A stretch of 64,000 bases of DNA, from positions 1 through 64,000 of the forward strand of contig CAVSLC010000004.1 in assembly GCA_963728565.1 (NCBI GenBank), in the 5' to 3' direction. Under the pieces are notes generated by a model that saw nothing but the letters and a program-made list of their open reading frames with translations, was not told the DNA's origin and ran no database searches. A program made the translations under genes and the position numbers. This document shows, piece by piece, positions 5,985-11,643 of the stretch (its first letter is position 1; every line of letters starts with the position of its first letter). The DNA is from an uncultured delta proteobacterium. Lineage in GTDB: Bacteria; Desulfobacterota; Binatia; UBA9968.

Positions 5985-6199
5985 CCGCAACAGGGCATAG
6001 GCAGATAGCGCCTGCGTGGCAGAGATCTCTCGATCTGGTCCAATTCACTGTCAACTTTTCAGGATCCGAAACAAGCTGCTTCTATCAAGCGAATGGCGAT
6101 ACTGTGCTTACCATCTTCAATGTCGTCGCTGCCAATCGATTCGGCCTCTACACAAACGCCAAATTAATCGATAAACTTCTTCCCGGTAAATATTTTCCC

Positions 6200-6838
6200 A
6201 TGAATACTAACAAGTACCGATTTATACTGTTGGGATTGATGGTTGCCGCATTGGGCATCGTCATCGGCACGCTTCTCTGGATCAAGCTGGCTCCACCGCC
6301 CCGCTTCGGTGCTAACCAACGGAGTTCTCTGGAAGGAATGAGCCAGTACGGTTCTGTGCCCGAGTTCTCATTAACAGAAAGAAGCGGCAAGACCATTGGG
6401 TCGGAGCAACTGCGCGGCACAATCTGGATTGCCGATTTTATCTATACCGATTGCCAGGATACCTGTCCGCTTCAGAGTGCAGAGATGGCCAGGCTACAAG
6501 ACGAACTGTCGGGGCAAGGAGTCGTGAAGCTACTGTCCTTTTCCGTCAACCCCGACAAGGACACGCCATCAGTTCTTTCCCAGTACGCAGATCGATTTAA
6601 AGCCAGCACAGATCGTTGGCTATTTCTAACCGGCGGGCAAGAAGAGATAAGAAGCCTAGTCCAGAACGGTTTCCGCTTGAGCGTCGCCACCGCCTCGAGC
6701 GATCCCGGCGTGATTCTGCACAGCCCGAGATTGGTATTGATCGACCGGCAAGCGCAAATTCGCGGTTATTACGATAGCCGGGATCACGAAGCGCTACGGC
6801 GTCTCCGCAGAGATGTGGCCATCTTAGTGAAGGATTGA
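6200..6838 (+). CDS. SCO1/SenC family copper chaperone
   Basis: N-terminal TM anchor, FIYTDCQDTCP (CxxxC), SVNPDKDTP, conserved His in ILHS. ATG 6200 preferred over GTG 6104. Confidence 0.9.
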   Translation: MNTNKYRFILLGLMVAALGIVIGTLLWIKLAPPPRFGANQRSSLEGMSQYGSVPEFSLTERSGKTIGSEQLRGTIWIADFIYTDCQDTCPLQSAEMARLQDELSGQGVVKLLSFSVNPDKDTPSVLSQYADRFKASTDRWLFLTGGQEEIRSLVQNGFRLSVATASSDPGVILHSPRLVLIDRQAQIRGYYDSRDHEALRRLRRDVAILVKD

Positions 6839-6851
6839 GGAGATTGTAAAA

Positions 6852-7734
6852 ATGGCAAAGACAAGTAAGAACAGGCCAACCTCCAACATCCAAACAGCTG
6901 CCCCGAGCACAGCCAAACAGCAACCGAACTGGCCGATACTCGGCTTTGGCGATCTCCGGTATGCTCCTGTCCGGTTATCTGACCTATTCCGCTTGGCAGG
7001 GCCAGTCAGTAGCCGGATGCACAGTGGGCAGTGCCTGCGACATCGTACTCAATAGCCGCTGGTCGAAACTGTTGGGCATGCCGATTTCGTTTTGGGGCTT
7101 TTTGGCCTACGCTCTTTTAGCCGCTATCGCCTGGAACAAAACCACGCCTAGTCAGTGGAAGATGGCTTGGACCGTCACCATCATCGGATTGCTTTATAGC
7201 CTCTACCTTACCGGTGTTTCACTGATCGTTTTGGATGCCGCTTGTCCTTATTGCTTGACTTCACTTGGATTGATGACGGCGATTTTTGCCGTGCTCCTCA
7301 TGCGCCGGCCTGCCAAAATGCCGGGTTTTTCTTGGGGACCATGGCTCGGGAAAACCGCGGGGGCGGCGGTTCTGATCATCATCGTCCTCCATCTTCATTA
7401 CTCAGGCTACATCGGAAAAACCGCCGGCCCGGAGGATCCATGGATTCGTGGACTGGTTGAACATCTGGCGAAGACCGATGCCAAATTTTACGGCGCATCG
7501 TGGTGCCCCCACTGCACCGAGCAGAAGGAGCTTTTTGGCCCCTCATCGGCGCGAGTGCCGTACATCGAATGCAGCCCGGGCGGGCCGCGCGCGCCGCAAG
7601 CGCAAGCATGCAATGACGCGGGCATCAAGAGTTATCCGACTTGGATTATCAATGGGCAACGCTATTCGGGCATTCAGTCATTGGACAGCTTGGCTCAGTA
7701 CAGCAACTACAAGTCGGCAGGAGCAAAGAAATGA
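6852..7734 (+). CDS. VKOR-thioredoxin fusion (disulfide-bond formation); one +1 frameshift at ~6945
   Basis: GCTVGSACDIVLNSRWS and CPYC (VKOR), then YGASWCPHC (Trx-like). The N-terminus from ATG 6852 (GAGGAG RBS) joins the main frame if one T of TTT 6945-6947 is removed. Confidence 0.88.
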
Positions 7735-8195
7735 AAACGTTGAATTTACGGGAGATTTTCTTGCTGACACTTTCGGTGGCATCACTGCTGGGGTATCAGC
7801 AGACGGCAAGCGCTGATCCTTCTAAGTACCCTCAGTTTGCCCAACAATCACTGCCTGCCAACGTGCCGCTGGCATTTACATCCATTGATGAGCTGGTCGC
7901 TGAGGTAAAAGCCGGTAAAAAGCCTTCGATTATCGACGTGCGAACGACGGCGGAATACAATGAAGTTCATATTCTCGGCGCCACCTCAGCCCCGCTGGCT
8001 CAATTTAAGGAATACGTAAAGAGTATCCCCAGGGACCGGCCGGTTGTTCTCTATTGAGCCTGCCCACATCACCTGGCCAGTTTGGCCTATGGCATTCTCT
8101 ATGAAAATGGCTATCGCAATATGAAGGTTCTTAACGAAGGCTTGATCGGCTGGCACGAGAGACGTTATCCGATGGAAGGAACCAAGGTTCCTTGA
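7731..8195 (+). CDS. exported rhodanese-domain protein with in-frame UGA (probable selenocysteine, UxC motif)
   Basis: Signal peptide; IIDVR..EY..HILGA; VVLY-[TGA 8055-8057]-ACPHHLA...GYRNMKVLNEGLIGW completes the rhodanese fold in frame; next stop 8193-8195, 10 nt before queC. Confidence 0.8.
8061..8094 (+). promoter_or_regulatory. candidate bacterial SECIS hairpin
   Basis: GGCCA-GTT-TGGCC (8075-8087) with loop G 23 nt after the UGA; outer TGCC/GGCA pairing possible. Confidence 0.55.
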
Positions 8196-8205
8196 ATCAG
8201 GACCC

Positions 8206-8907
8206 ATGGCGCGAAAAAAAGCTGTCATTCTACTTAGCGGTGGAATCGACTCGACCACCGCGGCAGCGATTGCGCGGCGCAATCAGTTCGATCTTCACGC
8301 CCTCACCTTCCGCTATGGCCAGCGTCACGAACGAGAGATCGAAGCCGCTAAAAAGGTCGCGGCTTGGTTGCGAGTCGAGGAGCACCTCATAATTGAGTCC
8401 GGCCTGCGCGCGATTGGCGGTTCGGCTCTGACTGATCGCATGGAGGTTCCCAAAGGCCGCTCGCCATCGGAAATTGAGTACGGCATACCGGTAACGTACG
8501 TGCCGGCGCGCAATACCATCTTCCTGGCATACGGCTTGGCACTGACCGAAAAGATTGAAGCGTCGGACATTTTTTTTGGCGCCAATCAGCTTGACTACAG
8601 CGGCTATCCCGATTGCCGCGACGAATATGTTCGCGCCTTTGAAAGGATGGCCAATCTGGCGACCAAAGCCGCCGTCGAAGGCAAAGTGCAGTTGAAGATT
8701 CACACCCCGTTAATTCAAATGACAAAAGCAGAAATCATTAAGCAAGGAAGCGAACTGGGACTCGACTACAGCCTTACTTGGAGTTGCTATGATCCAACTG
8801 TGGACGGCAAAGCTTGCGCCCTGTGCGACAGCTGTCAGCTGAGGCTAAAAGGTTTCAAAGAGGCAGGTCTTAGCGATCCGATCGCTTACGCAACCACCGC
8901 GGGTTAG
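8206..8907 (+). CDS. queC: 7-cyano-7-deazaguanine synthase
   Basis: LLSGGIDS, TYVPARNTIF, DYSGYPDCR, TWSCY...CALCDSC. Confidence 0.96.
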   Translation: MARKKAVILLSGGIDSTTAAAIARRNQFDLHALTFRYGQRHEREIEAAKKVAAWLRVEEHLIIESGLRAIGGSALTDRMEVPKGRSPSEIEYGIPVTYVPARNTIFLAYGLALTEKIEASDIFFGANQLDYSGYPDCRDEYVRAFERMANLATKAAVEGKVQLKIHTPLIQMTKAEIIKQGSELGLDYSLTWSCYDPTVDGKACALCDSCQLRLKGFKEAGLSDPIAYATTAG

Positions 8908-9818: not shown

Positions 9819-11643
9819 ATGGAGTTTCTCAATCCCGCAGCCCTTTACGGACTTTTTGCGTTACCCTTGCTCCTGGTGCCTTATCTCGTCCGGCGCAAAC
9901 CACGCCGTGTGGTCTTTTCCAGCCTGCTGTTGTTTATGGAGCATGGTACACAAGCAACTGCCAAACCGTGGGGCCAGCTGCGTCTTCCGCCCGTTTTCTT
10001 TCTTCAGTTGCTCCTGCTGACCTTGTTGATTTTGGCGCTTGCCGAGCCGGTATTCTCTCTCCGGTTATCCAATATCGCCATTGTGATGGACAACTCGGCT
10101 AGCATGCAGGCGCACGAGGATGGCACAGCCCGTATCGCACTCGCCCGGGATCAGGCCAGGAGAGTGCTCGGTGATCTCAGTGCAAACGGTAAAGTAGATA
10201 TTTTCACACTCGTGCCGCAGCTTCAGAAAGTTAACAGAGCACCGCTTTCGCCGTCTGAGGCTATAGGATTGCTGGTCGGCTTGGAGCCCTACGACCTGGC
10301 TGATGCACCGACGAATTATGCCGACCTCTTTAACCAGCTAACCTCCAATCACAAGTATGAGCGCGTCTACTTCATCACCGATCGACCGTTACGAGGCCAA
10401 TCGGGCGCTCGTTCGGGTTCTTACCGTGGGAAAACCGCGAGACAACCTGGCGATAACCGCATTTAGCGTTTCGCCCTCTTCTCTGGTGAACAGACGTTTA
10501 GAGGCGTCCGTCGAAGTTGCTAATTATTCCGCCCAAGATCAACGGGTCAGAGTAACGATAAGGGACGATGGCAGTGGAAGTGCCATAGCCAATCGGGAAC
10601 TCAAGGTTCCGGCGCGACGAACTGCTTCCGCGACCTTCCAGGGTCTCTCCGAGAAGCCATATTATGTTGCTGAAATTGACGACAACGACGCGTTGAGTCT
10701 CGATAATCGGCAATTTGCCATTGCCGCAAACGCGCGTAGCTTGAAGATCCTGGCGGTTTCGCCTCGTCCTCAAGCGCTGAACAGTTTGCGCGCGATCGCC
10801 GGCGTTAGCCTGACCATCGTTTCCCCCGAAGACTACCAGCAGACCGATCGTTCAGGTTTCGGCTTGGAGATTTTTCACTATTCAGCACCAGCCTTATTGC
10901 CGCTCAATCCATCTCTGCTCGTCTTGCCGCCCGACAGCAATGCCGTTGTCAAATTGGGCAAGCCGGTTACACGGCCGGTGGCGTCGGGCTGGCGCGAATC
11001 GCATCCACTGAACCGATATCTCAACATGGCCCTGTTCCGTCCAACGTATGCCCGGCCGTTAATTCCGCAAACAGCCGGCGAAACAATCATCGAAACCGTC
11101 CAAGGACCACTTGCCTTCACGATGGAGCATCAGGGCCAAAGGCTCCTGGTGCTCGGGTTTGATCCTTTTCCGTATCTAGGACGAGAGAATTTGCCGATGT
11201 CGATCTTCACGCTCAATCTTCTTGACTGGTTTGTATCGGCCAGCAGCCCTAAAGGCCGAGCGACAGGGGAGCCAATTGCCCTGAGGGCTACCCGACACGA
11301 ATCAACATTGACTACCCCACGAGGGGAAAAACATGTAGTCAAACCAGCCTCAACTAGCTTCACCAACACCTTTTATCAGGGCATTTACCAGCTCAATCAA
11401 GGTGGCGAGGGTCAGCTCTTGGCGATCAACTATCAATCCGCCAGTGAATCGGATCTGCGGGACAGCAAGCCTCTGGAGATAAAACCAACAGAGAGCGCCA
11501 TCAGCAGCGGTTCGACACTCTTCTCGTTCTGGCCTTATCTGGTTATGGCGTCATTGCTGCTTTTCATTGTCGAGTGGTTCTTTGTCCCGCCAGCCGATCA
11601 CAGGCAATTGCCGCCGGCAGCGGCCCGGCCAAAGTTTTCATGA
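9819..11643 (+). CDS. BatA-domain / VWA membrane protein; one +1 frameshift at ~10403
   Basis: MEFLNP..L..LPLL..Y..RR..FSSL (BatA), LALAEP, DNSASM MIDAS; continues in the 10357..11643 frame (VRVLTVGKPRDNLAI) to a C-terminal TM helix. Confidence 0.8.

Follow-up and report, generated by a model that had tools for sequence, protein, structure and literature searches.

A putative UxC selenocysteine rhodanese, exported and encoded directly behind a VKOR-thioredoxin fusion in Binatia

The window analyzed here, a 64,000-nucleotide (nt) stretch of contig CAVSLC010000004.1 from an uncultured delta proteobacterium of the Binatia lineage (assembly GCA_963728565.1), very probably contains at 7731-8195 a gene for an exported rhodanese in which an in-frame UGA is decoded as selenocysteine (Sec). 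Rhodanese-domain selenoproteins are themselves already known; what is new is a UxC form, exported and coupled to a VKOR gene, in Binatia. The selenoprotein call is solid, and the link to VKOR is the part worth testing.

The rhodanese open reading frame (ORF) consists of 154 codons and a TGA stop. Its codon 109 (8055-8057), directly after the residues PVVLY, is itself a TGA, past which the same frame stays open for 45 codons (ACPHHLASLAYGILYENGYRNMKVLNEGLIGWHERRYPMEGTKVP) up to the TGA at 8193-8195; across the decoded UGA the peptide would read VVLY-U-ACPHHLASLAYGILYENGYR. The terminal stop is separated from the ATG of queC (8206) by 10 nt, as against a gap of 148 nt (8058-8205) if the codon were not read through. 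The original prediction, made from the letters of the window, had pointed to this TGA, to the 45-codon continuation and to both distances, and each is present in the sequence; so is the hairpin GGCCA-GTT-TGGCC that it described with its loop G 23 nt downstream, found at 8075-8087 with the G at 8080 when the distance is counted from the A of the TGA. TGA ends both the rhodanese gene and the upstream VKOR gene (7732-7734), and since it closes the rhodanese gene itself, it is an ordinary stop in this organism. What, then, sets codon 109 apart? The gene and its parts, including a candidate selenocysteine insertion sequence (SECIS), are as follows.

7719..7723, plus strand: ribosome-binding site AGGAG, 7 nt before the ATG at 7731; a GGAG-type motif precedes the RTGA overlap in related loci.
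7731..8195, plus strand: full predicted selenoprotein gene, an exported single-domain rhodanese of 154 codons plus TGA stop; based on TGA conservation, Pfam, codon entropy and a structure model.
7731..7814, plus strand: putative signal peptide of 28 residues (MKTLNLREIFLLTLSVASLLGYQQTASA), with cleavage predicted before DPSKYPQFAQQ; judged by eye.
8055..8057, plus strand: UGA predicted to be read as selenocysteine (U109), a conserved TGA at the canonical catalytic Cys position of the rhodanese loop.
8061..8063, plus strand: TGC codon for Cys111, candidate resolving partner of U109 (U-x-C); Cys in all aligned Sec and Cys forms.
8061..8094, plus strand: possible extended SECIS, with a lower helix of 8061-8064 and 8091-8094 (uncertain); paired in 83 Binatia-type sequences.
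8075..8087, plus strand: putative core bacterial SECIS, the apical hairpin GGCC(A)-GUU-(U)GGCC; based on pairing conservation, synonymous freeze and fit to the published model.
8193..8195, plus strand: stop codon TGA; TGA, TAA or TAG stands at this second stop in related loci.

One test named with the original prediction was whether homologues keep the TGA, and they do, with the coding sequence downstream conserved. TGA occupies the identical column in 24/24 loci (the window and 23 close Binatia-type loci from genome bins) and in all 80 loci kept, out of 184 relatives, in a metagenome scan; of 41 genomes sampled from the window's order, 21 gave strong matches, every one of them with a single in-frame TGA. 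Four of four loci from other phyla (Candidatus Entotheonella and another bin; L207-L210), found by searching with P0101, the nearest apparently Cys-bearing protein, likewise have TGA, followed by T/A-C-P-H-H. A class-wide sample contains the gene in nine of 151 genomes, every one within the window's order. Because the locus sets share some members and the loci are related, these counts suggest more independent events than there are and have to be discounted; even so, a TGA shared across the sets excludes both a sequencing error and a pseudogene. The order search also returned a copy (G169:C2:672048-672467) with one TGA and one TAG inside the match.

Could the TGA stand for a misread TGC or TGT? 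The source is a draft genome (80.6% complete, 28 contigs), and assembly errors had been suspected nearby when the gene was first noticed, but TGA is found in over a hundred independent assemblies and in contigs of two metatranscriptome studies; an error is effectively refuted, its probability next to nil. Because independent assemblies agree, the suspected errors leave the rhodanese gene untouched. The metatranscriptome contigs span the codon and report no other letter there; they are Logan contigs rather than raw reads, and an RNA library can contain DNA. Contigs of two DNA runs (X1 and X4) leave the codon uncovered, and such holes prove nothing. One DNA run and two RNA-library runs also yielded short contig fragments that match only the Sec codon and hairpin (window 8052-8099), with flanks unlike the window; their loose ends translate like relatives of the Entotheonella/P0101 type, in which this 38-nt stretch is nearly identical. 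Elsewhere in the window, two same-strand ORFs in a BatA/VWA region (9819-10466 and 10357-11643) overlap by about 110 nt, which may be a frameshift-type assembly error of the kind originally suspected.

The protein databases tell the same story from the annotation side. A search of 5.8 billion proteins found 442 relatives, and among the best 120, 117 are 105-111 residues long; the six database homologues that were read all terminate at LY. Gene callers everywhere thus stop at the TGA codon. Three database proteins depart from this pattern. P0012 (154 residues) has W at the Sec column (LY-W-ACPHH), presumably a TGA called as Trp on a short contig. P0101 (163 residues) reads C-A-C-P-H-H, and its four closest genome relatives (L207-L210, 54-80% identical) read TGA-[AT]-C-P-H-H; P0101 could be a Sec-to-Cys replacement inside a Sec lineage. 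In P0138 (157 residues, 46% identical, a relative of a divergent Sec lineage), G-N-R-P-R-H replaces U-x-C-P-R-H, so that both redox residues are missing while the remaining domain and the signal peptide are kept.

If gene callers annotate a stop at this codon, why should it not be one? A true stop would leave either a truncated protein of 108 residues or a pseudogene, with the sequence beyond it non-coding or occupied by a separate small ORF (8082-8195), and one related locus, L009, has indeed lost its tail by deletion. The nucleotides past the TGA tell against this. Across 97 distinct sequences, mean column entropy at codon positions 1/2/3 is 0.34/0.17/0.98 for codons +13 to +44 and 0.56/0.37/1.35 for the region upstream of the TGA; the 45 downstream codons show the pattern of a coding sequence, just as the undisputed upstream part does, and this amino-acid-level selection extends over about 100 loci. 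Moreover, the codon is TGA in all loci, never TAA or TAG. The downstream codons also complete the domain and its fold, and a product that ended at residue 108 would have no active-site loop. A true stop is therefore highly improbable. At L009 (3325-3405), TGA and hairpin are kept and the deletion fuses the rhodanese frame, about 17 codons past the TGA, to the queC start region (ILYEN-AKKSCHST, then stop); this tail loss could be a real deletion or a misassembly.

The fold is that of an ordinary rhodanese. Pfam Rhodanese (PF00581) matches residues 53-143 over model positions 3-101 of 102, with 53.6 bits against a cut-off of 22.2; the match crosses the TGA, and the domain is thus complete only with the TGA decoded. 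In HMMER alignments to solved rhodaneses (6mxv and domain 2 of 1yt8), residue 109 falls on the active-site Cys, just where the original prediction had put it, and in 72 Cys-form sequences the counterpart of residue 109 is the first Cys of C-x-C-P-H. An AlphaFold2 model built from 120 sequences (mean pLDDT 85, with low confidence at residues 17-27) has a helix at 6-23, a strand at 105-108 (VVLY), a loop at 109-113, a helix at 114-125, a strand at 131-134 and a helix at 137-143; judging from this model, a protein ending at residue 108 would be without its active site and would miss roughly a third of the fold. Foldseek returned generic rhodaneses as the closest structures in the PDB (TM-score about 0.6) and no special analogue, and a search of the ESM Atlas returned generic rhodanese clusters only. 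Other rhodanese paralogues in the window's genome are ordinary cytoplasmic types.

Bacterial selenoprotein genes carry their SECIS in the coding sequence just past the UGA. According to the legend of Figure 2 of a 2026 review (PMC13188914), its stem has 4-16 base pairs (bp) and its loop 3-9 nt, with a G in the first two loop positions, mostly as N1-G-[G|U]-N-N2 with N1 and N2 paired; the UGA lies 16-37 nt from the loop, and the minimum free energy is at most -7.5 kcal/mol. The hairpin at 8075-8087 has a stem of 4-5 bp, the loop A-G-U-U-U, in which A and U can pair, and a spacing of 21-22 nt; its energy is -9.3 kcal/mol with the lower helix and -14.4 kcal/mol for a 66-nt stretch. The hairpin first called SECIS-like thus agrees with the published bacterial model, its energy being borderline when the apical part is taken alone, and its synonymous freeze turns out to be specific to Sec forms. 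Over 83 distinct sequences, 746 of the 747 pair cells hold standard pairs, and the basal pair is GC in 67, GU in 14, AU in one and CG in one; only two of 500 shuffles reach such values. Codons +4 to +12 (CAT CAC CTG GCC AGT TTG GCC TAT GGC) are nearly frozen at synonymous sites in the TGA forms, with a normalized synonymous entropy of 0.18 vs. 0.70 for 38 other conserved codons (p = 1.6e-5).

Does this freeze serve the RNA or the protein? Stem and loop are kept in none of 70 distinct Cys-form sequences, and the Cys form L043 encodes the identical peptide (ACPHHLASLAYG) after its TGC with the codons CAC CAC CTC GCG AGC CTC GCC TAC GGC. Since the Cys forms lack the frozen codons even where the peptide is the same, the freeze goes with the TGA and not with the protein. 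In the divergent lineage (40-44% protein identity) and in other phyla, the apical hairpin is retained; L199 has a re-shaped hairpin in the same place. The lower helix is 100% paired in the 83 Binatia-type sequences yet almost invariant, and it is missing from the Entotheonella-type loci, which form 0-1 of its 4 pairs; for this reason it is downgraded to uncertain.

Decoding UGA as Sec calls for a dedicated machinery, and whether the genome has it was another test set out with the original prediction: selA, selB, selD and tRNA-Sec are all present, the three genes clustered on contig 28 and the tRNA on contig 25. Profile scores are 521.7 bits for selA, 81.3 bits for the SelB winged-helix domain (in a frame of 645 residues) and 382.3 bits for selD. 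Co-occurrence of selA within the order is uninformative, as 39 of the 41 genomes have a strong match; selA is also strong in three of the four genomes from other phyla. The selD gene has a Sec codon of its own (AAG-U-AAKLG, at C28:38599), followed by the hairpin GUGCA-AGUUU-UGCAC. A glutaredoxin gene on contig 7 (C7:40637; L205:293-736; Pfam Glutaredoxin, 51 bits) has an in-frame TGA at the first Cys of its CxxC motif (G-U-S-S-C), followed, as in selD, by a 6-7 bp hairpin with an AGUUU loop, and this UxxC protein is likely a further selenoprotein of the genome. On contig 14 (C14:30118; L206) lies a formate dehydrogenase-like gene with a twin-arginine signal, a Sec codon (ARI-U-HSSSV) and a GGUCU-loop hairpin; its matches are spread across several frames, perhaps owing to frameshifts in the draft assembly.

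Might the UGA be read as an ordinary amino acid, such as Trp, Cys or Arg, by near-cognate decoding? P0012 has W at the Sec column, and sequence by itself does not decide which residue is inserted. But the codon sits on the catalytic Cys and is Cys in homologues, it is followed by a Sec-specific RNA constraint, the genome encodes the complete Sec apparatus along with other Sec genes whose hairpins have the same loop, and TGA terminates this very gene and its neighbor; insertion of an ordinary residue is accordingly very improbable, if a shade less so than a true stop.

Several observations do weigh against the selenoprotein assignment. Sec incorporation is read from sequence here and is demonstrable only experimentally. 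The hairpin is small, its apical part alone reaching -7.4 kcal/mol, just short of the -7.5 of the published model; its fold energy is ordinary for its composition (z = 0.36, with 121 of 200 shuffles folding at least as well); and an Rfam search gave no match to a SECIS family, its sole match being a chance hit to sR4 (E = 2.3). Genome-wide, 25 hairpins with an RGUYU loop follow an in-frame TGA, compared with 7-30 for eight scrambled loops (9 follow TAA and 10 follow TAG). The loop motif alone is thus not discriminating, and only the cases supported by homology count: selD, glutaredoxin, formate dehydrogenase and the Sec-rhodanese. The covariation comes from few events, with two sequences changed on both sides, and the fourth genome from another phylum has only a weak selA-like match. 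By itself, then, the hairpin is no more than chance would give; its conservation is far beyond chance.

Where would the protein act? In 24/24 loci the N-terminus, judged by eye, has a basic (K/R) n-region, a hydrophobic core and A-x-A before the conserved DPSKYPQFAQQ. For the periplasmic Sec enzyme originally proposed, the putative signal peptide has conserved features of the expected kind, and a periplasmic location would probably follow. Export would not be unusual for a selenoprotein, given the Tat-type formate dehydrogenase of the same genome and a "(seleno)lipoprotein" family in NCBIfam. The loop of the mature protein would be U-A-C-P-H-H; it is U-[AQ]-C-P-R-H in the divergent lineage and U-T-C-P-H-H in the Entotheonella type. 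The Cys at +2 (C111) is invariant in all aligned Sec and Cys forms, for the Cys forms partly because the search pattern was built that way.

These Cys forms are uncurated, share the loop Y-C-[AG]-C-P-H-[HE], are 26-50% identical to the Sec-rhodanese and differ from it in having TGC or TGT for TGA and no SECIS hairpin. They occur in Methylomirabilota, Sericytochromatia, many Halobacteria, Desulfobacterota, Myxococcota and Cupriavidus. Almost always they look extracytoplasmic, with signal peptides, twin-arginine and lipobox leaders, or fusions to a di-haem cytochrome c or a DedA/VTT membrane domain. In L053-L055, L078, L082 and P0239, a signal peptide and a di-haem cytochrome c (CcoP-like) precede the C-x-C-P-H rhodanese in one fused protein; this architecture has no curated family, and L082 comes from a Binatia bin. 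The 74 Cys-form loci have no VKOR, SCO1 or QueC neighbor; their neighbors are lineage-specific and share no common theme.

In the window's order the Sec form, in contrast to the Cys forms, keeps conserved company. Its neighbors in the window are the following.

6104..6838, plus strand: SCO1/SenC-type membrane-anchored copper chaperone or thiol-disulfide protein, first gene of the cluster; Pfam SCO1-SenC, 93.4 bits.
6946..7734, plus strand: VKOR-thioredoxin fusion, a DsbB-like quinone-linked disulfide generator with a periplasmic thioredoxin domain; Pfam VKOR, 79.8 bits.
8206..8907, plus strand: queC, the downstream neighbor in closer relatives only; Pfam QueC, 245 bits, 22/23 close loci.

The VKOR fusion has a Cys pair in a loop, CPYC at residue 100, then another hydrophobic segment and, in a thioredoxin domain of about residues 160-262, CPHC at residue 187. 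Its TGA stop (7732-7734) overlaps the rhodanese ATG at 7731, and both the RTGA overlap and the GGAG site recur in 24/24 loci. The SCO1 protein, whose ORF is listed as 6104..6838 with its likely start at an ATG near 6200, has one transmembrane-like segment and a C-x-x-x-C motif; SCO1 precedes VKOR in 22 of 23 related loci (the remaining one is cut short by its flank) and in the divergent lineage. Of the 41 genomes sampled from the order, 36 have VKOR and 21 the Sec-rhodanese; in 18 of these 21 the rhodanese is directly downstream of VKOR, the remaining three being on fragmented contigs. In four genomes with VKOR and no rhodanese, tblastn located VKOR in every one (4/4), with SCO1 adjoining in three and absent in L201; unrelated genes follow VKOR there, with no rhodanese remnant. 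In the window's order the rhodanese is an accessory gene riding behind a housekeeping disulfide generator. As a member of the system queC was considered and rejected, for it is not adjacent to the rhodanese gene in the divergent lineage, and it is probably not part of it.

What could such a protein do? As the sequence suggests, the mRNA of 7731-8195 would be translated through the UGA at 8055-8057 as selenocysteine, with SelB and Sec-tRNA(Sec) recruited by the coding-sequence hairpin GGCC-AGUUU-GGCC, 18-30 nt past the UGA; the 28-residue signal peptide of the 154-residue pre-protein would direct its transport across the membrane, and the mature protein would be one rhodanese domain whose loop, U-A-C-P-H-H, has Sec in place of the catalytic Cys and a Cys at +2. 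The operon position behind VKOR and SCO1 suggests a periplasmic selenol/thiol redox role. U109 and C111 may form a selenenylsulfide in an envelope redox or sulfur-relay enzyme that is re-oxidized by the VKOR-linked thioredoxin domain, a reading we favor tentatively, at somewhat under an even chance. Two findings point in the same direction: the cytochrome c fusions of the Cys forms attach an electron sink to the C-x-C loop, and PspE, a periplasmic single-domain rhodanese (PMC2593051), is reported, together with DsbC, to replace DsbA/DsbB partly in disulfide formation (PMC5403849, citing Chng et al., 2012), so that a periplasmic rhodanese can feed the disulfide system.

A more specific version, which is speculative and on balance unlikely, makes the Sec-rhodanese the selenium-bearing arm of a quinone-linked envelope redox module, in which the VKOR-thioredoxin fusion oxidizes U109/C111. 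The Se-S bond, unusually reactive, would then serve as a catalytic oxidant or as a sulfur/copper relay, e.g., toward SCO1 and cytochrome oxidase maturation, and the same logic, with another electron sink, would apply to the Cys forms fused to di-haem cytochrome c. Against a VKOR-based mechanism in general stand the 17 of 41 genomes in the order that have VKOR without the rhodanese, which means that VKOR is not dedicated to it, and the four loci of the Entotheonella type, which have no VKOR or SCO1 neighbor and whose neighbors are lineage-specific.

Does the selenoprotein act on copper instead? U109, C111 and the following His residues, H113 and H114, could make up a metal site, the protein being a periplasmic copper chaperone or reductase that works with SCO1 in cytochrome oxidase assembly. 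SCO1 is conserved two genes upstream, the divergent lineage included; the loop C/U-x-C-P-H-[H/E] is conserved over about 120 aligned Sec and Cys forms; a table in PMC13188914 gives UxC for a Cu/Zn efflux transporter selenoprotein; and L209 has one sub-threshold CopD-like neighbor (26.8 bits vs. a cut-off of 32.1). However, the divergent Sec lineage has Arg for the first His (U-[AQ]-C-P-R-H) and several Cys forms have Glu for the second, the motif conservation among Cys forms is partly built into the search pattern, and SCO1 adjoins none of the 74 Cys-form loci and none of the four Entotheonella-type loci. A copper site thus seems doubtful.

The same selenoprotein could also be a simpler enzyme, a PspE-like periplasmic sulfurtransferase for thiosulfate or other sulfane sulfur, working through a Se-S persulfide-like intermediate, with C111 and VKOR incidental. 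The rhodanese fold with Sec on the catalytic position, weak similarity to the PspE and GlpE models and the periplasmic single-domain architecture of PspE itself are all in keeping with this. But the scores against those models (27.6 bits for PspE, 20.4 bits for GlpE) are far under the cut-off of 102, the +2 Cys, needless for a simple sulfurtransferase, is invariant across the family, the Cys forms are recurrently fused to di-haem cytochrome c, and the start codon overlaps VKOR in 24/24 loci; plain sulfur transfer is unlikely, about as much so as a copper site, though both are still serious competitors of the redox reading.

The practical consequence is a corrected annotation. Databases carry the protein as a truncated rhodanese of 105-111 residues or as a hypothetical protein, no curated model catches the full form, and the gene is present in soil and rhizosphere metagenome contigs of several studies. 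Binatia and Entotheonella-type bacteria would, judging by the predicted export signal, put selenium into an envelope enzyme. The start-codon overlap with the VKOR-thioredoxin fusion offers a testable hypothesis that ties a selenoprotein to quinone-driven disulfide generation; were the redox module real, it would be the first case of a selenoprotein linked to disulfide generation by DsbB/VKOR.

How does the protein relate to known systems? Among ordinary exported rhodaneses the closest in kind is E. coli PspE, also small, exported and single-domain; it has one Cys, no Sec and no VKOR link, and the two PspE models score 27.6 and 25.0 bits vs. cut-offs of 102 and 126.3 (GlpE, 20.4 vs. 102). In spacing, the window protein resembles UxC/UGC redox selenoproteins (UGC TlpA-family, Prx-like and thioredoxin-like Sec.2), which in the published descriptions are envelope-type thiol-disulfide proteins with the same Sec/Cys distance; these have a thioredoxin fold, however, and the window protein a rhodanese fold. 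In the tables of PMC13188914, UxC is given only for a thioredoxin-like protein and for the Cu/Zn efflux transporter selenoprotein mentioned above.

Sec-containing rhodaneses have been predicted since 2005 (table in PMC1088965), and a UxU form was reported in the Olavius symbiont study (PMC1976440). The 2026 review lists five forms: UxxS, UxxG, CxU (form 3, NF041203), UxxG and UxxxxU (form 5, TsoB). UxC is absent among these five, and supplementary lists may contain further forms. Forms 1, 2 and 4 (UxxS, UxxG) and TsoB likewise have Sec in the active-site loop and were, as tabulated there, predicted by comparative genomics; the window protein is set apart from them by the listed motifs, not by alignment to their example sequences. 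TsoB, a rhodanese/DsbD fusion-like protein, scores 21.4 bits vs. a cut-off of 805; the window protein is a single domain of 154 residues. Literature searches on Binatota and selenocysteine and on rhodanese and VKOR turned up no report of the window protein, which supplementary tables could list. Judged by these profile scores, the protein is outside every curated Sec-rhodanese family, and its recognition would add a sixth form, UxC, to the catalogue.

The nearest of these families is NF041203 (rhodanese_LYCAU, "rhodanese-related (seleno)protein"), the best-scoring curated model at 57.3 bits vs. a cut-off of 115 (50.4 in the genome search). A look-alike of this CxU form is L030 (3001-3330, in a metagenome-assembled genome of Blastocatellia), which reads FYCT-TGA-PSEHSS (C-x-U), with a UGCCG-GUU-CGGCA hairpin about 20 nt past the UGA and a frame closed just upstream of the match. 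NF041203 and the window protein alike consist of one rhodanese domain; in its active-site loop Sec and Cys stand two residues apart, and Pro comes next. Unlike NF041203, the window protein has the P-H-H continuation, the conserved DPSKYPQFAQQ at its mature N-terminus and the VKOR context. Above all, the pair is swapped: NF041203 is LY-C-A-U, with Sec at +2 (an order taken from the model name and the review's "CxU", L030 being the only look-alike aligned), whereas the window protein is LY-U-A-C, with the predicted Sec on the canonical catalytic position, and the two families thus offer a contrast on which of two neighboring redox residues becomes Sec.

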